The notes under the pieces: model-generated
Database searches by the model: none
What the model was told of the DNA's origin: nothing
The model's input: the letters and a program-made list of their open reading frames with translations, nothing else
From: a virus
Taxonomy: Duplodnaviria > Heunggongvirae > Uroviricota > Caudoviricetes
Virus record (IMG/VR): IMGVR_UViG_2531839448_000005
Span: 1 to 54,367 of that record
Strand: one strand, 5' to 3'
DNA length: 54,367 nucleotides
Part shown: positions 16,862 to 49,130 of the stretch, piece by piece
How the letters are laid out: every line of letters begins with the position of its first letter
Position numbering within the stretch: the stretch's first letter is position 1
Program-made: the position numbers and the translations under genes

Positions 16862-16872
16862 AATGACCTCGG

Positions 16873-17609
16873 TTAAAGCGAACGGATGCCCACGCTGACC
16901 AGATGTTCAGACAGATCCAGCTCCGGTTCACCACCATTGACCAGCATCCGGCTCATTGCTGTAAACATCGCAACAGGGCCGTCGATTTTGGCTTCCAGCG
17001 TGGATTTATTCGGGAAGATATTGTCGTTTTTGTCCGGTTTTACCGTAACGTTAGACATCATCCAGTTCATGACCGGATGATTGCTGTGATGGAAACGCCC
17101 GGCATAGACCAGTGATTCCGTTTCCTTCATGGCCTCTGACAGATTGCGAACCGTCTGCGGAACCTCCACCAGCGGTATCCCTTCTTCAGCCAGTGCCAGG
17201 CTGAACTGCATCGCGCTCCACGGGTCAAATCCCAGTTCCCTGAGGTTTTCACCACCAATCCATTCCAGTAAGTCACTTTTTATCTGAGCATGATCGATAA
17301 CATCACCATCCGTCAGAATCAGCTTATCCATCTCCGCCCACTTCCGGTAAAGTTCTGCCTGCTGCCGCGAGCATCGTTCCAGCCGTCCTTCCGGAAGCCA
17401 GAATTTAAAATCGGCATGAACATGCCCGTTATCCGTTCGCCAGAGTTTTGCCGCCGCACAGATATCAATCTTATGAGCAAGGTCAACGCCGACCCACATG
17501 GGATACGTTTTCAGCTCATGTCGTGGGGCAATGTATTCGCACTTCTCCCACTTAATCATGTCCATCCAGGCAGACTCTGCTGTTACCCACACATTCATGT
17601 GTTTGGTAA
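16873..17609 (-). pseudogene. terL: terminase large subunit, C-terminal (nuclease) fragment of the resident prophage; separated from its 5' part by the 15 kb insertion
   Basis: ORF begins MNVWVTAESAW and aligns to the C-terminal third of the intact island terL (shared WxxSNV and KPNK motifs); in-frame stop lies immediately upstream inside the island. Confidence 0.85.
17603..17609. repeat. left junction core TTGGTAA (direct repeat with 32655-32661)
   Basis: identical 7 bp at both insertion junctions; flanks join to an in-frame terL. Confidence 0.6.
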
Positions 17610-17683
17610 GAATATTTCAAGTTTTTTAAAATCACCTGTATATCAATCATTTAACATGAAAAACAGTCTTTATAAATCATCGA

Positions 17684-17891: not shown

Positions 17892-18046
17892 TGCGGGTTA
17901 TGCGGGTTAGCGGGTTATCTTCGCGTGCTAAGTATTTTTTACTCTTTAATATCAATACGTTAAAAACAACGTATCTAAATATCAGCCAGAATGTAACCCG
18001 CAAGACATTCAAAATAACCCGCAAACACCACTCAAATAACCCGCAA
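17892..18046. repeat. iteron cluster A: 3 direct plus 3 inverted copies of GCGGGTTA(T) flanking an AT-rich spacer
   Basis: TGCGGGTTAT, GCGGGTTAG, CGGGTTATC at 17892-17919; TAACCCGCAA at 17994, 18014, 18036. Confidence 0.6.
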
Positions 18047-18125
18047 AAACATCCCTGAAAGTGGGTGCCGATAATACTGAAAATTTATTCCATTAAATGA
18101 GCATTGTCCTCTCTCATCCATTCCG

Positions 18126-25665: not shown

Positions 25666-25728
25666 GCTGTCTGCTCTCCGGTTTTAACGTTGATGGTTAC
25701 GCTTGTTTACACCCTTACGGTGAAATTC

Positions 25729-25854
25729 TGCGGGTTATAATCGCACTTTTGCGGGTTATAACTGCCGTTTTGCGGGTTACGTGCGGGTTATTGATTTCCT
25801 TTTTATTCATACAGTTAATGCACTTATATACATGATAACCCGCATAACCCGCAA
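25729..25854. repeat. iteron cluster B: 4 direct plus 2 inverted copies of TGCGGGTTA(T) flanking an AT-rich spacer; candidate replication origin
   Basis: copies at 25729, 25751, 25771, 25782 (direct) and 25835, 25845 (inverted); immediately 3' of the primase gene. Confidence 0.6.
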
Positions 25855-28315: not shown

Positions 28316-28564
28316 TTACTCCAGAGGCAGCTTTTTAGCGGCGAGCTCAATATCAGATGTCAGAGAAACCTGTGTATTTGCCAGGTCTAACAACAAAGAA
28401 ATAAGAATTTCTTCTCTGCTATCGGATTTATCGGTGCTAAGGCTGTTCATCCACATATTGACGACTTCCCTGATTTTTTTCGCAGAGTGCAGGGCTTCAA
28501 ATGCCAGGTCTTCAATATCATGTTTATTTCGCATAATCGCCCCCGCCATTTTCACAATCAGCAA
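28316..28564 (-). CDS. hypothetical protein
   Basis: 82 aa ORF. Confidence 0.3.
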   Translation of the reverse strand: MLIVKMAGAIMRNKHDIEDLAFEALHSAKKIREVVNMWMNSLSTDKSDSREEILISLLLDLANTQVSLTSDIELAAKKLPLE

Positions 28565-28769
28565 TCAGGATGGCTTTTGCCTCATTCAGCGCCATATCAG
28601 CACTAAATTGCATAACAGCCAGTGAGTGAGGAACGAAAGCCCCGGCATATTCTGTTTCGCTGGTGGCGTGCTTATGCGCCTTGTCTGCGATAACAGAAAT
28701 ATCAATCAGCGCGTGCATCAGCGTTTTGATGGCTTCGGCGGCTGCGTCCGGACGGGTGTTATTGCACAT
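28524..28769 (-). CDS. hypothetical protein
   Basis: 81 aa ORF. Confidence 0.3.
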   Translation of the reverse strand: MCNNTRPDAAAEAIKTLMHALIDISVIADKAHKHATSETEYAGAFVPHSLAVMQFSADMALNEAKAILIADCENGGGDYAK

Positions 28770-29073
28770 GGCGCACCTCCTGACGAATACGGGCAGCGAA
28801 TACCATCACGCAGCCAGCCGGGGATTGCTGGCGTGCTTCCTGTTCGCTAGTGGCCTCAATGGTAATCACACGCGGTTGTGCCGTGCTCAGGGCGATAAAA
28901 CGCCAGATGTATTTATTCAGGTTGTGCGAGTCCCGCCCTTGCGGGTGTGTGGTATGATTTAACATAGCTACCTCGATAATCTTGCTATCGTTGGTGGTTA
29001 GAAGCCCGGTTAGTGTTAGCGCACTGCCGGGTTTCGTCGTTTGTATTTCAATAAAACCATTGGTGTGTTTCAT
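28759..29073 (-). CDS. hypothetical protein, first gene of the island leftward operon
   Basis: manual call: ATG at 29071-29073 inside the operator motif, 105 codons; the 393 aa track ORF is a read-through artefact. Confidence 0.35.
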   Translation of the reverse strand: MKHTNGFIEIQTTKPGSALTLTGLLTTNDSKIIEVAMLNHTTHPQGRDSHNLNKYIWRFIALSTAQPRVITIEATSEQEARQQSPAGCVMVFAARIRQEVRHVQ

Positions 29074-29150
29074 GTTATTTTGGAGTGAAACACACGTCAA
29101 GCCTTTTTTGTATTTCTTTTTTGTGTATACTGAAACACACCAAATTTGAG
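29050..29150. promoter_or_regulatory. divergent promoter region with three copies of operator-like motif TGAAACACAC / GTGTGTTTCA
   Basis: copies near 29055-29068, 29083-29096 and 29138-29150 between divergent genes. Confidence 0.5.
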
Positions 29151-29161
29151 GAGTTTCAGTT

Positions 29162-29467
29162 ATGGCGACTACCAACAAAAACGCTAAATCACAATTGACC
29201 ACCGTCAGAGTCCCCCACGATGTTATGGAGGGCATGGAATCCGTAAAACTGGACGGCGAAAGCAACGCCGGATTCATAGTAACCGCCATGCGCGGTGAGA
29301 TCGCCCGCCGCCAGGCAGAAGGAAGCGGAGAAAATCCCCTGGTTTCTTCGCTCGATGCACTGGCGCAGGTGGAAAAAATTGGAGTCAAGGCTGCCGAGGA
29401 GATCGGGCAACTCGTCACCGTCGCGCGTGAAGAACTCCAGCGACGCAAGGTCAAAGAGCAGGAATAG
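29162..29467 (+). CDS. hypothetical protein, candidate island regulator
   Basis: 101 aa ORF divergent from the island operon, directly downstream of the operator triplet. Confidence 0.4.
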   Translation: MATTNKNAKSQLTTVRVPHDVMEGMESVKLDGESNAGFIVTAMRGEIARRQAEGSGENPLVSSLDALAQVEKIGVKAAEEIGQLVTVAREELQRRKVKEQE

Positions 29468-29524
29468 CCACTATCAGCGCCATAGTTTGAGGAACGCAGG
29501 CGCATTGCTTTACAGGACAGCACC

Positions 29525-29704
29525 ATGAGCGACACAGAATCAACCAAAACACCATCACCAACTCGTAAGAGACGACGCAAAAATATAGCGCATGAACATG
29601 AATCAGAAAGATTCGCACCTTGTTCGTTTGCTCTTGAGAAATTCCTTAAAGAGCACAGGAAAAAGCTCTCGTTGCAAACCTTGGAACGAACCAAATCTGA
29701 CTGA
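29525..29704 (+). CDS. small basic protein
   Basis: manual 59-codon ORF MSDTESTKTPSPTRKRRRKN; below the track length cutoff. Confidence 0.25.
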   Translation: MSDTESTKTPSPTRKRRRKNIAHEHESERFAPCSFALEKFLKEHRKKLSLQTLERTKSD

Positions 29705-29770
29705 TCACATTGCCCACCAGCCGCAAATGTGGCATTGTTGGTGATGCTTTTGTTTTCCCTTGTTCCCACT

Positions 29771-29800
29771 GGCGACCCTTTTGCGGTCGCCTTTGTTTTG
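29771..29800 (+). terminator. rho-independent terminator
   Basis: GGCGACC/GGTCGCC stem followed by TTTGTTTTG. Confidence 0.6.
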
Positions 29801-29892
29801 CCTGTTATCCGGCAATAGTGGCGCTTCGTCACCTGTCTGATATAATTCCACAGCTTATATTCATTTTTTGCGCAGTAGGTTAATTGTTCGCA

Positions 29893-29926
29893 AGGGCGCT
29901 CCGGCAACGGGGCGCTTTTTGTTTTT
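29893..29926 (+). terminator. rho-independent terminator
   Basis: GC-rich hairpin followed by TTTTTGTTTTT. Confidence 0.5.
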
Positions 29927-30084
29927 ACCCACCAGCACAATAAAAATCTTCATTTTCCATTTTTGTAAAATTTCATGCTTTCCGGACGACTGGTCATATG
30001 TCATTTTTTAGCAGAAGATTTTGCCTTGCTGGTGGGTAGCTTCCCGGTCAACACGATGTACCGTATAATCAACACCGCGTGTGG

Positions 30085-30663
30085 TTACTGAATACGCTCA
30101 CCAAAGTAAAACTCAGGCTGGTATTCACGTATCAGCCTTTTTTCTTCTTCCTCCAGCTCACGCTTTTTGCGCTTACATGCCTGTAGCTCCCTCCCCTTCT
30201 CACTGGCACTTATCTGGTATTGCTCTTTGCGGCGGGAAAAATCCTGTAATGCGCCCCACGGGATACCATAAGCCCCCGTTTTTCTGATACCCGGTATCAC
30301 ATTTCTGAATACCCAGTTACTGAAACGATGAGCAAATGTGCCAGGCGTCGTTGCTTTGCGGCTGCGGGCTATTAGTTTGTAGAAACCTGACTCGGAGATA
30401 ATGCTCATATTCTGATTTCCTCCGGGGGTGTAAGTTAAATTTACTCCCTTTTCGTCATCATCAAGCATCTGCAACGCCGTACGCGAATTGGTCAATTCCA
30501 GCGCAGCACAAACATCCTTTGCAACAAACCACGGATCGCCGTTTAGATACACCACACGAACATCCACGCCATCAAAGCGCAGAACGACCAGATCACGAAT
30601 ATCACAGAATTTTTTCACATGACGTGCGTCACCCTTGCCCGTCACGGCAATATTTTTATTCAT
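30085..30663 (-). CDS. Bro-N domain protein (antirepressor-like)
   Basis: N-terminal Bro-N-like pattern RVVYLNGDPWFVAKDVCAAL...ESGFYKLI...FSNWVFRNVIPGIRKTGAYG. Confidence 0.65.
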   Translation of the reverse strand: MNKNIAVTGKGDARHVKKFCDIRDLVVLRFDGVDVRVVYLNGDPWFVAKDVCAALELTNSRTALQMLDDDEKGVNLTYTPGGNQNMSIISESGFYKLIARSRKATTPGTFAHRFSNWVFRNVIPGIRKTGAYGIPWGALQDFSRRKEQYQISASEKGRELQACKRKKRELEEEEKRLIREYQPEFYFGERIQ

Positions 30664-30720
30664 TGCTTTTTACCTCACATACAAAAAACCCCGCATTGCG
30701 TGGTGCGGGGTTGTCGGTAA

Positions 30721-30999: not shown

Positions 31000-31062
31000 A
31001 AAAATATCACCTATAAAAAAACCCGCCAAAAGACGGGTTGATTATATCTCATTTAATTTAGC

Positions 31063-32654: not shown

Positions 32655-32661
32655 TTGGTAA
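32655..32661. repeat. right junction core TTGGTAA
   Basis: direct repeat of 17603-17609. Confidence 0.6.
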
Positions 32662-33682
32662 AAAAATTCACCCGCGCAGAGACCTGTTCTTTCGCTTTTT
32701 TCGCCAGGCGACGCAGATCATCCCAGCGTTTACAGATGCCCAGGCCGGGATTCGCTTTCTGCCAGACCGTTTCATCAAACGGATCATCTCCCTCATCGAG
32801 GGTGTAAATAATCGCAAAGTAGGAGTCGTCTTTTACAGCGCCCTCCACATCGCTGTTATAGCCACGCAATACCTTGATGGCGTAATCACGCTGCTCGTAA
32901 CAAATCCCTTCCTTGTTAAACCCTGCCGTGGTGATACCAAATAACAGGGACTGCAGGCGGGCACCGGTTGCCGTTTCCAGAACGTCCCACACGTCGCGGG
33001 TTTTATGTGCATGCAGCTCATCAATAATGGCGCAGTGGATGTTCAGACCATCCAGGTTGTTTGCATCCGAGGAAAGCGGTTCAAATTTTGATGCGCTCTG
33101 CTCCTGGTAAATCGCCAGCTTGTTGAAATCAAACAACCGCCCGAGTGTCGACCGGGCTTTTCTGACCATATTTTTGGCGTCTTCAAACACAATTCTGGCC
33201 TGGTCACGCGTGGTGGCGGCTGAATACACCTCAGCACCGCCTTCACCATCTGCCCCCGTCATATACAGGCCGATACCCGATGACAGAGTTGATTTTGCGT
33301 TTTTACGGGCGACTTCGTTGTACGCCGTCCGGAACCGGCGCACCATCACCGGACGTCCGCTGCCATCGCTGCGCATGACAACTTCCCCGGTCTCTTCATT
33401 CACCAGCGGAATGACAAAACCAAAAATATTAATGAGGATAAATACATGCCAGTCCATCAGTTCAATGGGCTGGCCTGCCAGCGCCCCTTTTACATGAGGC
33501 ACAAATTTGTAGAAATTCAGGATGTGCTGCGCACGGGGTTCACTGAAATAAATCCCCCGCTCTTCGCCGTACTTCAGATCATCAAGAAAACGCTGGCAGG
33601 CCAAGCGGACAAATTCGCCAGCAACAATTTCTCCTGCAACAACACGTTCGGCGTAGCGGATCCCGTCAGCCACTTTTGCCAT
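32655..33682 (-). pseudogene. terL: terminase large subunit, N-terminal (ATPase) fragment of the resident prophage
   Basis: ORF reads terL-like sequence to ...ARVNFFTKK then 53 unrelated codons inside the island; Walker-type motifs present. Confidence 0.85.
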
Positions 33683-34164
33683 CAGTCTCTCGCTTTTAAA
33701 AGCTCCGCCAGCGGATCAACATCATCCGGTCCGGCGATATTTACTTTAGCCCGGCTTGCCGGTGACATACCAAACTCTGCAAGCATTGCCCGGATCCGCT
33801 TCCAGGCATCCGCTTTCATTGCCGCCGCGGGGTGCGCCTTAATCAGTACATCACCGCTCTGCGTTTCCGTGCGGTAGGTATACCCCTCAACATCGAGTGT
33901 TTCGCAGTGATGCCGATATTCGGTGTAGGCTTCCACCAGCAACTCGAGCGCACGCGCATCAAGCTGAGAAATGATCCCTTCCGCATTCAGCTCTTCCGCC
34001 ATTCGCCTGAACCAGTACTTCCCCTGAGCCCCTAAATGCTGCGGAATTTTAGGAAGACCTTTTTCATCCTTTTTAGCGGTTTTTTTGTGGTCTTTAACGG
34101 GGCGCTTTGAGGGGTTGCCTCGAATCAAATGCAGGCGTGGCGGGGTTTTCGGAGGTCCTGACAT
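33682..34164 (-). CDS. terS: terminase small subunit (P27-like)
   Basis: 160 aa ORF directly upstream of terL. Confidence 0.7.
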   Translation of the reverse strand: MSGPPKTPPRLHLIRGNPSKRPVKDHKKTAKKDEKGLPKIPQHLGAQGKYWFRRMAEELNAEGIISQLDARALELLVEAYTEYRHHCETLDVEGYTYRTETQSGDVLIKAHPAAAMKADAWKRIRAMLAEFGMSPASRAKVNIAGPDDVDPLAELLKARD

Positions 34165-37419: not shown

Positions 37420-37494
<75 letters not shown>

Positions 37495-37497
37495 ATA

Positions 37498-37573
<76 letters not shown>

Positions 37574-37575
37574 AC

Positions 37576-37652
37576 TGGACCGCCACCGGGGACTCGAACC
37601 TCGCACACTCAACTTAAAGGGTTGACGCTCTTTCCTGATGAGCTAGTGGCGG
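37576..37652 (-). tRNA. tRNA-like, anticodon loop CCUUUAA (putative UUU/Lys, non-canonical C33)
   Basis: 77 nt; 7 bp acceptor stem, TTCGAGT T-loop, CCA end; one mismatch in the T stem. Confidence 0.45.
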
Positions 37653-37653
37653 C

Positions 37654-37729
37654 TGGTGGCCCTTGCTGGATTTGAACCAGCGACCTGGCGATTATGAGTC
37701 GCTCGCTCTCACCACTGAGCTAAAGGGCC
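37654..37729 (-). tRNA. tRNA-Ile2/Met (anticodon CAU), ileX/ileZ-like
   Basis: 76 nt cloverleaf, anticodon loop CUCAUAA, close to E. coli ileX as recalled. Confidence 0.8.
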
Positions 37730-41142: not shown

Positions 41143-41298
41143 TTACTCCTCAGGTTCGTAAGCTGTGAAGACAGCGACCTCCGTCTGGCCGGTTCGGATT
41201 CGTACCTCGCAGAGGTCTTTCCTCGTTACCAGTACCGTCACTATGACGGTTAAACAGATGACGATCAGGGCGATTAACATCGCCTTTTGCTGCTTCAT
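41143..41298 (-). CDS. hokD: Hok/Gef-family type I toxin
   Basis: MKQQKAMLIALIVICLTVIVTVLVTRKDLCEVRIRTGQTEVAVFTAYEPEE, near-identical to HokD/RelF as recalled. Confidence 0.85.
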   Translation of the reverse strand: MKQQKAMLIALIVICLTVIVTVLVTRKDLCEVRIRTGQTEVAVFTAYEPEE

Positions 41299-41558
41299 AG
41301 CCTGCTTCTCCTTGCCTTTCGGCACGTAAGAGGCTAACCTACATTTGTGAGACATAGATTGGGCCTCAGATTAATGTTAAGCGTCTTGCAGGACGCGTAA
41401 TGTTAACTGGGGCTTTTCTCTATCTGCCTTTTGGTGTTCATGCCCGAGGCAGATAGCCTCAAGCACCCGCAGCAATTCTACTTAACTCTCCTTTTCCCGC
41501 AAACCGTTTTTGCTCACCATGATAAGTCGTTATTGTAATTAATTGACATAACGATTAG

Positions 41559-45414: not shown

Positions 45415-46497
45415 TTACCCCCTGAAGCCCGGTGGAATTTCGGTATCCGGTTCAGAAATATGATTCACACAACGCTGGTTGTTCGTGCCGCTTACCGGGA
45501 GCAGCCAGGGGTTTTCAAAATTCCGGTCCGGTCCAAAAAACGTCGTCGCTCGCTGAACAAATTCCGTTCCCGTTTTCCCGGTAGCCGCAAGGTATCTTGC
45601 GTAACGCCTCACGCCATCCAGCATGGCCTCTGGTGACACCCCCTCGCGTAATCTGGCCTTCCAAGCACTGAAAGCGGATTTCTTCGGGTTTGCCCCAGCA
45701 CGCAACGGGTATTCCCGCCAGACCTGTTCGAACACATCCGGATAATCCACTCGTCCCACAGGCTGCCCGGTGTTTTCCGGGACTACCCGATCGGCTTCCC
45801 GCTGAATGGCGGAATCGGCTTCAGGCTGCTGCAGTTGGTGTGATTGCTCCGGCCTTGCGGTCATCACCTGCTGCACAGCGCCCGAATCGGCTTTCAGCGC
45901 ATACGCTGAATCGGCTTCCGGTGTCGTGCCTGCTGGCTGACCAAGATTGACGGTCTGAACATCCCCTGCCTGGTTCGTGGCGTTTTTTACGCCATGGACC
46001 ATAGTGTTTTGATCTTCTTGATCTGTATCTGTATCTTTATCTGTATCTTTATCTGTCGTGACTCGTCGTGACATGTGCGTGACATTTCGTGACGCGCCGT
46101 GACAATCGCCATTTTGTTCCCGCTTTCTTTCCCTCTCTCGCTGCGCCCTCTTGCGCTCTGCAGGAGATTTTGCGGTTTGCGAAATATTGCCGTTGTCCTC
46201 TTTAAGCACCTGGCGTTTTTCCCATCCAGTGATTAAATCACCATCAAGTACCCGCCCCTGCATCGTCTGCAAAATTGAATCAATTACCTCTTCTGTCACG
46301 TCGAGCGCACTTGCCAAATCTTCTGTCGTGACATCAATGTGACCTCGCGTGACATTTCGTGACGCGCTCACCAGGAGGTGGATATACACTGCCATCACTG
46401 TTGCAATTGGCTGCCCTGACACCCTGGCAATTGTTCGCCACTTAGGGTCATTTGGCATGTCATGCCATAATCTGAGCCAGGCGTTAGCCATACTCAC
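45415..46497 (-). CDS. replication initiation protein (lambda O-like role) with internal iterons
   Basis: 360 aa; acidic DKDTDKDTDTD linker encoded by tandem repeats; GTGAC iterons inside the gene. Confidence 0.5.
   Translation of the reverse strand: MSMANAWLRLWHDMPNDPKWRTIARVSGQPIATVMAVYIHLLVSASRNVTRGHIDVTTEDLASALDVTEEVIDSILQTMQGRVLDGDLITGWEKRQVLKEDNGNISQTAKSPAERKRAQRERERKREQNGDCHGASRNVTHMSRRVTTDKDTDKDTDTDQEDQNTMVHGVKNATNQAGDVQTVNLGQPAGTTPEADSAYALKADSGAVQQVMTARPEQSHQLQQPEADSAIQREADRVVPENTGQPVGRVDYPDVFEQVWREYPLRAGANPKKSAFSAWKARLREGVSPEAMLDGVRRYARYLAATGKTGTEFVQRATTFFGPDRNFENPWLLPVSGTNNQRCVNHISEPDTEIPPGFRG
46010..46110. repeat. tandem ATCTGT and CGTGAC repeats (candidate prophage ori iterons)
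   Basis: 4-5 ATCTGT(ATCTTT) units then five CGTGAC units within the replication gene. Confidence 0.5.
46320..46370. repeat. second group of CGTGAC repeats
   Basis: three further GTGAC units about 250 bp from the first group. Confidence 0.45.
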
Positions 46498-48569: not shown

Positions 48570-49130
48570 TAGCTAACCAACGAAGCTAAGGTTGGTAATT
48601 AAGGAGTTCTCCACGGGTGAGGTGGAGTGCGTGCGCCGGACACGGGTGAGCATCCGGCACTGACAGTTTACTGAAAGGATATTTCCATGAAAAGTCAGAC
48701 CATAACGCGAAAGCGCACGGCGAGGTAGCTGGTTCATAGATAGCCTGTCGTTAAATTTTCGTCGGCCGTGCGCTTCCGGTTGTGGCACTCCGCGAAATGG
48801 CGCGGCGGTAAGTATGGCGGGGTTATTCCTTCCCCGTTGAGGACACCTGGTTGTCAGGTTGACCATACGCTTAAGTGACAACCCCGCTGCAACGCCCTCT
48901 GTTATCAATTTTCTGGTGACGTTTGGCGGTATCAGTTTTACTCCGTGACTGCTCTGCCGCCCTTTTTAAAGTGAATTTTGTGATGCGGTGAATGCGGCTA
49001 AGCGCACGCGGAACAGTTAAAACCAAAAACAGTGTTATGGGTGGATTCTCTGTATCCGGCGTTAATTGTTAACTGGTTAACGTCACCTGGAGGCACCAGG
49101 CACCGCATCACAAAACTCATTGTTGAGGGC
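48570..49130 (+). other. about 560 bp structured non-coding region (several hairpins, long-range inverted repeat)
   Basis: hairpins CCAACgaagctaagGTTGG and GCCGGAcacgggtgagcaTCCGGC; 9 bp GCGCACGGC/GCCGTGCGC pair; 15 bp inverted repeat TTTTGTGATGCGGTG / CACCGCATCACAAAA. Confidence 0.3.
48930..48966 (+). terminator. candidate terminator inside the non-coding region
   Basis: GGCGG...CCGCC stem followed by CTTTTT. Confidence 0.3.

Follow-up and report, generated by a model that had tools for sequence, protein, structure and literature searches.

In the immI region of phage P22, the Arc and Mnt repressors act at the overlapping divergent promoters Pant and Pmnt. The Stl (Rpr) proteins of the Staphylococcus aureus pathogenicity islands (SaPIs) and other Gram-positive chromosomal islands inducible by phages (PICIs) are larger helix-turn-helix (HTH) proteins. 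For the PICIs of Gram-negative bacteria the question of the repressor was left open (Fillol-Salom et al., PMC6092414). Here we describe a divergent control region in such an island, contained in a window of 54,367 nucleotides (the whole stretch of DNA that was analysed; IMG/VR record IMGVR_UViG_2531839448_000005, positions 1 to 54,367), in which copies of the 10-bp motif TGAAACACAC lie between the leftward replication and packaging operon of the island and a rightward gene, 29162-29467, that encodes a member of the YlcI/YnfO family. As judged by comparison of homologous loci, these repeats most likely behave as operators for the product of that gene. The island would then possess a switch of a classical kind, with a ribbon-helix-helix (RHH) repressor, repeated operators and divergent promoters, that is drawn from an uncharacterised protein family and operates in satellites without a recognised repressor.

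The likeness to P22 would lie in the use of a small RHH repressor, in back-to-back divergent promoters and in operators placed over core promoter elements. As in Mnt, the RHH domain modelled for the 29162-29467 protein precedes a C-terminal helical domain suited to oligomerisation, and an Ant-type (BRO-N) gene lies near the control region of the island, as in immI. Unlike in P22, the island has one protein with four to five sites at 22-23 bp, its operon is one of satellite replication and packaging and not ant, and there is no significant sequence relationship to either P22 protein (hhalign gave E 0.007 and a probability of 5.6% for Arc, aligned in the RxP register, and a probability of 0.8% for Mnt). 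With the Stl systems (PMC6092414) the locus shares a regulator divergent from a satellite replication/packaging operon, with intergenic operators, as well as a regulator gene flanked by the integrase side and by the replication module, and the existence of many allelic specificities. Homology to the HTH proteins Stl and Rpr was not found, in that a Pfam search of the 29162-29467 protein returned no HTH family and its fold is modelled as RHH. Two further differences are that stl runs toward int in the unit on the int side, whereas here the replication operon has the same orientation as int, alpA and BRO-N, and that derepression by helper proteins has been demonstrated for Stl, whereas Gram-negative PICIs are reported to be induced via AlpA.

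Exact copies of TGAAACACAC occur at 29063-29072 (minus strand, copy 1), 29086-29095 (plus strand, copy 2) and 29131-29140 (plus strand, copy 3). A sequence-only reading of this DNA had reported three copies within 29050-29160, two of them in inverted pairs, between the leftward operon and the 29162-29467 gene, and on all these points it was accurate: the gene map agrees, copies 1 and 2, separated by 13 bp, make up a perfect inverted repeat, and copy 3 is likewise inverted with respect to copy 1. The three copies are not due to chance, none of 2000 shuffles of 29050-29160 having contained three, and 10-mers present three times within 111 nt are found at only five places in the whole window. The fourth exact copy in the 54 kb, at 5187 within an open reading frame (ORF), is probably a chance occurrence. 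The term “triplet” used in that reading has to be replaced by an array of four to five sites, since two degenerate copies were found when one mismatch was allowed in a 9-mer, at 29042-29050 (TGTATTTCA) and 29108-29117 (TTGTATTTCT). Relative to the ATG of the 29162-29467 gene the five phased sites lie at -120, -98, -76, -53 and -31, with a spacing of 22-23 bp (two helical turns) over a span of 29042-29140, and the three exact copies are most likely the strongest of approximately five operator sites. Many sites fit a loose GTG-N5-CAC frame in the site table, in which the CAC(C) side is kept and the centre is variable. Elsewhere in the island only matches with one mismatch were found, at the level expected by chance. 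The sites and the promoter elements that they touch are as follows (“arm groups” and “window-type loci” refer to the comparison described below).

29042-29050, no strand assigned: site O0, degenerate copy TGTATTTCA, in the leftward leader; at -120 in all window-type loci, 87% column conservation
29063-29072, no strand assigned: site O1, reading GTGTGTTTCA on the plus strand, which takes in the final base of the leftward -10 together with the predicted +1 region; 98% conservation
29086-29095, no strand assigned: site O2, TGAAACACAC, inside the spacer of the leftward promoter (P_L) and abutting its -35; 97% conservation
29108-29117, no strand assigned: site O2b, degenerate copy TTGTATTTCT, at -53, the expected place of a rightward -35
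29131-29140, no strand assigned: site O3, TGAAACACAC, taking in the final -10 base and the predicted +1 of the putative rightward promoter (P_R); 99.5% conservation
29095-29100, minus strand: P_L -35, TTGACG, from the consensus scan; TTGAC kept in nearly all loci
29072-29077, minus strand: P_L -10, TAACAT, from the consensus scan; a -10-like hexamer here in all arm groups
29126-29131, plus strand: probable P_R -10, TATACT, read from the sequence; 96% conserved

P_L (TTGACG-17-TAACAT) was the sole sigma-70-like site called by the consensus scan within 28400-29700, and its TTGAC as well as the -10-like hexamers of both promoters are conserved among relatives. P_R is the probable promoter of the ylcI-like gene. 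The sites thus overlap core elements of two back-to-back promoters, O2 and O1 at P_L and O2b and O3 at P_R, and the O2b position, degenerate in the window, holds a clear copy in other groups (GTGTAAGAC, TGTGATTCT, TAAATACACACC). Could the repeats be a product of chance, or a by-product of the duplication of two similar promoters, to which no dedicated protein binds? In favour of such an origin, the same 12 bases follow both -10 hexamers, the unit shared exactly by copies 1 and 3 extending to TGAAACACACCA. We consider this explanation barely credible, given the outcome of the shuffles, the middle copy, which is not at a -10, and the replacement of all copies in concert in 13 lineages.

That replacement emerged from a comparison of 180 loci that encode a homologue and retain its upstream region. 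Seven of these came from a scan of genome contigs and the rest from contigs encoding homologues and from metagenome and viral scans; a megablast search against a phage collection gave no match. The same layout, a regulator divergent from the replication/packaging operon with intergenic sites, is present in the 180 loci, and the repeats hold their positions relative to the promoters as their sequence varies by lineage. The N-terminal arm of the regulator occurs in 13 variants, each well-sampled one of which has a motif of its own:

Arms KSQLTTVRVP and KSQLFTVRVP (KSQLTTVRVP being that of the window): motif TGAAACACAC
Arm MSVYKNAKSQMTTIRVP: motif GTGA(G/T)ATAC (GTGAGATAC)
Arm KSQSLTARIP: motif GTCTTACAC
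Arm KSKQISIRIP: motif TGAATCACA
Arm KSQQLNARFP: motif TGAATACCA, which is the type of locus L012
KNIR-type arms: motif like AAATACACAC
Arm KSQMISTRVP: motif GACTACACC

When motifs were matched against arm groups the resulting matrix was diagonal. Within the window-type group, whose 19 distinct upstream sequences derive from E. coli, Xenorhabdus, Photorhabdus and Serratia, the columns of O1, O2 and O3 are 97-99.5% conserved vs 67% for unassigned columns, which indicates that the sites are under selection. Sites within one locus are 88% alike, vs 48% for sites at the same position in different classes; because the sites change in concert, the pattern points to one trans-acting reader. The part of the locus that best predicts whether two loci share a motif is the start of the regulator: over 5151 pairs of distinct loci the area under the curve was 0.99 for YlcI residues 1-20, 0.90 for residues 21-50 and 0.69 for residues 51 to the end, and 0.70 for the Icd-like protein encoded by the first leftward gene. 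It would appear that a region of approximately 300 bp (~29000-29300), consisting of the operators and the first ~45 codons of the regulator gene, forms a swappable specificity cassette, and that at least 13 specificity types circulate in the satellites of the Enterobacterales.

Natural exchanges between loci bear on which protein reads the sites. The window and L012 share int, the two AlpA genes, BRO-N and the 3′ half of ylcI at 92-100% identity, a range that narrows to 96-100% when ylcI is left aside; over 28800-29300 identity falls to 40-64% and the motif differs. AlpA, BRO-N and integrase are excluded as readers by this near-identity alongside a different motif. Conversely, locus L022 has the motif and arm of the window together with another primase family and an Icd-like variant resembling that of L012, which excludes the primase and the Icd-like protein. 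The possibility that some other protein is the binder (AlpA, BRO-N/Ant, the Icd-like protein, the primase through iterons, a factor of the host or a helper-encoded regulator) derives some appeal from the 22-bp periodicity, which resembles plasmid iterons, from the role of AlpA as a known activator of PICI genes, and from the PHROGs label of the Icd-like family, “transcriptional repressor”. We regard it as very unlikely. Beyond the exchanges just described, the identity of the Icd-like protein does not follow the motif (identity is <60% in 426 pairs that share a motif and >=80% in 538 pairs whose motifs differ), so that its label as a repressor reading the repeats is not supported by the covariation data; the same motif stands alongside unrelated primase families; a separate set of iterons adjoins the primase gene at 25726-25779; and against a host factor stands the presence of at least seven motifs within the single species E. 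coli. PHROGs labels the BRO-N protein (30085-30663), for its part, “anti-repressor”.

The protein that the comparison singles out is encoded as follows.

29162-29467, plus strand: YlcI/YnfO-family gene, 101 residues, proposed operator-binding repressor, with an N-terminal RHH domain and a long C-terminal helix

Its family membership is secure (NCBIfam YlcI_YnfO_N, NF041551: 69.3 bits vs a cut-off of 30, residues 9-50), and RefSeq names the identical protein likewise. Two AlphaFold models, both of the monomer, have predicted local distance difference test scores of 85 and 87 and run from an extended N-terminus through helices at 19-28 and 35-53 to one long helix at 59-100. The model of residues 1-55 retrieves almost exclusively RHH DNA-binding domains (omega, HicB, SvtR, AmrZ, ORF56, NikR, Arc, MazE9, TraM, CopA and PutA), on which its strand-helix-helix is superimposable, and the full-length model retrieves coiled coils only. 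In the model, therefore, residues 1-55 are an RHH domain with the arm and strand (KSQLTTVRVP) followed by two helices. The arm and strand, residues 2-17, are also the most variable part among the homologues, which are spread across the Enterobacterales; the long form of the gene is present in 655 of 5426 complete E. coli genomes. Pfam gave no family at E<=0.01, and neither PDB sequence searches nor PHROGs (function unknown) yielded a functional assignment. The Pfam model PSK_trans_fac, which we take to be a member of the RHH clan, matches 48 of 62 family members, all below threshold. Residues 46-86 (LDALAQVEKIGVKAAEEI, with an invariant I73-G74) match the helix-hairpin-helix of Hef weakly (PDB 1x2i, E 0.017), and AlphaFold draws this C-terminal region as one continuous helix despite that match.

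Two RHH proteins offer precedents for reading such an array. In NikR an oligomerisation domain separates the two RHH dimers, which read half-sites approximately two helical turns apart, a distance similar to the 22-23 bp of the island, and omega of pSM19035 binds repeat arrays in either orientation. Neither has sequence similarity to the island protein, which, unlike NikR, has no ligand-binding domain, and the heptads of omega are contiguous whereas the sites of the island are 22-23 bp apart.

On the leftward side, the position of the first operator relative to the first gene required a reassessment of where that gene begins.

28759-28965, minus strand: Icd-like gene, 68 residues, first of the leftward operon; NCBIfam phage_ICD_like, with a conserved Shine-Dalgarno sequence and ATG

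RefSeq places the start at 29073 (the longest ORF, 28759-29073, 104 residues), and copy 1 does overlap the ATG at 29073-29071, as the sequence-only reading had pointed out; the overlap itself is real, and its significance as a start codon probably reflects an artefact of annotation. Two bases of the ATG at 29073 belong to the P_L -10 hexamer as well, so a transcript from P_L would not contain this ATG, and it is absent in several relatives. A strong Shine-Dalgarno sequence and ATG are kept 188-211 nt upstream of the ylcI start in all loci (in the window GAGG, then the ATG at 28965), and other genomes annotate Icd-like homologues of 64-68 residues that start at this conserved ATG. For these reasons the 104-residue call is probably too long and 28965 is probably the true start. 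The same observations bear on whether the repeats act in RNA, copies 2 and 1 of a leftward read-through transcript pairing into a 10-bp hairpin by which the annotated AUG would be masked. GTGTGTTTCA-N13-TGAAACACAC, a perfect inverted repeat that overlaps the annotated ATG, fits such a structure well. Set against it are the location of that unconserved ATG within a -10, the direct repeats, which are unable to pair, at the homologous sites in several arm groups including that of the model island EcCICFT073, and the Rfam searches (whole window and a permissive scan of 28400-30200), which returned for 29050-29160 only eukaryotic snoRNA and miRNA models with E above 4. On account of the direct repeats we rejected the hairpin, and we hold a role of this kind to be extremely improbable.

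How far would repression at P_L extend? We found no terminator-like site between the Icd-like gene and 28400, the ORFs 3′ of the Icd-like gene abut or overlap as far as the primase, and no other promoter was called within 28400-29700; together these observations suggest that P_L heads the whole leftward operon. The same facts count against a more modest role, in which the YlcI-like protein does bind the sites and acts only as a local, antitoxin-like regulator of its own small operon and of a toxic Icd-like gene with its antisense RNA, the decision to induce being left to AlpA. That the leftward operon opens with the gene of an Icd-like division inhibitor, which has an antisense RNA of its own, that a small ORF optionally follows ylcI as a partner, and that AlpA is the activator required for induction of EcCICFT073 and EcCIEDL933, with the helper turning on alpA transcription (PMC6092414), would all be at home in such an arrangement, which we nonetheless consider unlikely.

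We consider it likely that the array of approximately five sites is bound by the 29162-29467 RHH protein and that this binding represses both the P_L operon and the protein's own gene. The proposal of the sequence-only reading that this region is a repressor switch stands to that extent: promoter overlap, conservation and covariation all favour operators for the 29162-29467 product. We infer physical binding, the sign of regulation, the oligomeric state, the assignment of P_R and the route of derepression. RHH dimers would read each site through the arm and strand, with the invariant Arg16 perhaps in contact with the outer bases, and residues 12 and 14, which vary, with the centre, a speculation drawn from the hhalign alignment to Arc and the site table. 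Helix 59-100 probably joins RHH dimers two turns apart into higher oligomers, in the manner of NikR or Mnt. Occupancy of O2 and O1 would block P_L, the promoter of the leftward Icd-like, replication and capsid/packaging genes, and occupancy of O2b and O3 would block P_R, resulting in negative autoregulation; because bound sites bracket the elements of P_L and P_R, RNA polymerase would be occluded at both promoters.

Several observations weigh against this proposal. The operators physically adjoin the sequence encoding the YlcI N-terminus, and recombination linkage alone inflates covariation; pure linkage is argued against by the Icd-like gene, which is about as near to the sites as YlcI residues 21-50 yet tracks the motif far less. 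O1 and O2 are inverted in the window and direct in other groups, O2 being differently oriented in some lineages. The consensus scan made no call at P_R, which has no recognisable -35. At the level of the protein, no curated RHH sequence family was matched above threshold and a Foldseek search found nothing. Over-expression of AlpA alone induces EcCICFT073 (PMC6092414), from which it follows that any repression must be overridable, and the protein is present in that island only as a short form of 59 residues.

If the RHH protein does repress P_L, by what means might repression be lifted? In the window int, alpA and BRO-N are oriented in the direction of the control region, and the route that we prefer is one in which repression is overridden by transcription entering from the int/alpA/BRO side. 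Such transcription might be AlpA-dependent, or it might be terminator-resistant late transcription of the helper, as in the read-through of helper late transcription hypothesised for helper-embedded islands (Tommasini et al., PMC10111431), and it would traverse ylcI in antisense orientation and circumvent P_L. A helper protein that titrates the repressor, akin to the helper-encoded inducer envisaged in the sequence-only reading, is in our opinion less likely.

A conserved, overlooked RHH gene on the opposite strand with co-varying operators would constitute a concrete candidate for the repressor of Gram-negative PICIs. Were this candidacy borne out, the uncharacterised YlcI/YnfO family would gain a function, and the loci offer a natural set of what may be orthogonal repressor/operator pairs. 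We found no paper that assigns a function to YlcI/YnfO or describes an RHH repressor in PICIs. The broadest form of the argument, that YlcI/YnfO RHH proteins are the missing immunity repressors of the Gram-negative PICIs, including EcCICFT073 and EcCIEDL933, that they keep the replication/packaging operon silent by way of a phased operator array, that they come in at least 13 exchangeable cassettes of operators and N-terminal arm, and that induction proceeds by AlpA-dependent or late helper transcription reading antisense through the repressor gene and not through an Stl-style anti-repressor, is one that we put forward only tentatively and regard as rather doubtful.

The start of the Icd-like gene may be subject to a second layer of control.

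28966-29049, plus strand: candidate cis-antisense small RNA of ~80 nt, opposite the Icd-like leader, Shine-Dalgarno sequence and start

Its promoter has an extended -10 (TGgTATGAT, 28950-28958), and a first hairpin (28974-28990) is followed by a terminator hairpin (29004-29032) and a U-rich tail. Among 69 distinct homologous segments both hairpins show compensatory changes, and RNAalifold gave -18.5 for the plus strand vs -4.2 for the minus strand. The match to Rfam SymR (RF01809; 33.6 bits, E 4.6e-4) is below the gathering threshold of 61, and the RNA is, by these measures, SymR-like in position and strand and not a member of the SymR family. An Icd-like first gene whose start lies under a small structured RNA recalls the immI region of P1 (c4 RNA-icd-ant), the immunity region of P4 (CI RNA) and SymR/SymE. 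The Icd-like domain of P1 immI is itself present here; C4 (RF01695) and IsrK had no match in Rfam at gathering threshold or at E<=10 over the whole window and 28400-30200, and the RNA of the island is cis-antisense (SymR-like, at a sub-threshold score), unlike the leader-derived trans-acting RNAs of P1 and P4. The antisense RNA layer is additional to that of protein and operators.

The small partner ORF mentioned above follows the regulator gene.

29525-29704, plus strand: second rightward ORF, 59 residues, basic; phrog_21027, function unknown; optional partner of ylcI

This conserved ORF was found in 92 of 160 loci as well as in EcCICFT073, and it may be a partner of the regulator. Two strong rightward terminator-like hairpins lie after the ylcI unit (29771-29791 and 29892-29919) and a leftward one after each alpA gene (31020-31039 and 30687-30712); in all, this stretch holds eight terminator-like hairpins vs approximately two expected. 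The iteron-like set just downstream of the primase gene consists of three copies of TTYTGCGGGTTA at 21-bp spacing (25726-25779) and is likely a replication origin. Two copies of the reversed iteron motif AAATAACCCGCAAA, at 22-bp spacing, are located at 18012-18050, just past the island terL.

An E. coli chromosome (NZ_OZ282453) matches the window with 100% identity, and the gene map given here is the annotated one of the identical RefSeq locus. On the minus strand the island encodes, in order, integrase, two AlpA-type proteins, BRO-N (Ant-like), the Icd-like protein, small ORFs, DUF4222, a DUF927 primase, SSB and ProQ, and then a full capsid/packaging set (major capsid protein, protease, portal, connector, HNH, TerS and TerL); Pfam recovers AlpA twice and Bro-N. 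The YlcI/YnfO gene is the sole annotated gene on its plus strand. The island splits, in co-orientation, the terL of an HK97-like lambdoid prophage (~16870-17613 and ~32656-33684). Its int and AlpA, its Bro and replication zones, the capsid and terminase genes of its own and its co-oriented insertion in terL make it a Gram-negative PICI of both the capsid-forming (bioRxiv 10.1101/2022.09.08.507074) and the helper-embedded (Tommasini, Mageeney & Williams 2023, PMC10111431) subtypes. Neither of these two papers mentions the opposite-strand ylcI-like gene or the repeats, and one of them describes all non-hypothetical genes as unidirectional.

Both model islands relate to the window. EcCICFT073 (NC_004431, 1377930-1388654) carries the module, with GGTGTGGCCCAC repeats, and its module genes have late-added locus tags; its short form (locus L186, 10474-10653) consists of the RHH domain only, without the equivalent of residues ~52-94, that is, the long helix. 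The capsid-forming island of O157:H7 (EDL933 type) has the long form and a diverged control region, 84% identical to that of the window, and the TGAAACACAC motif is present in loci that occupy the same site on the pntB side. The surrounding prophage contains, at 41293-41468, 48911-48962, 37420-37729 and 45807-46021, a sok antisense RNA beside hokD, DicF RNA, a four-tRNA cluster (Gly, Thr, Lys, Met) and two further groups of 10-mers that are each present three times.
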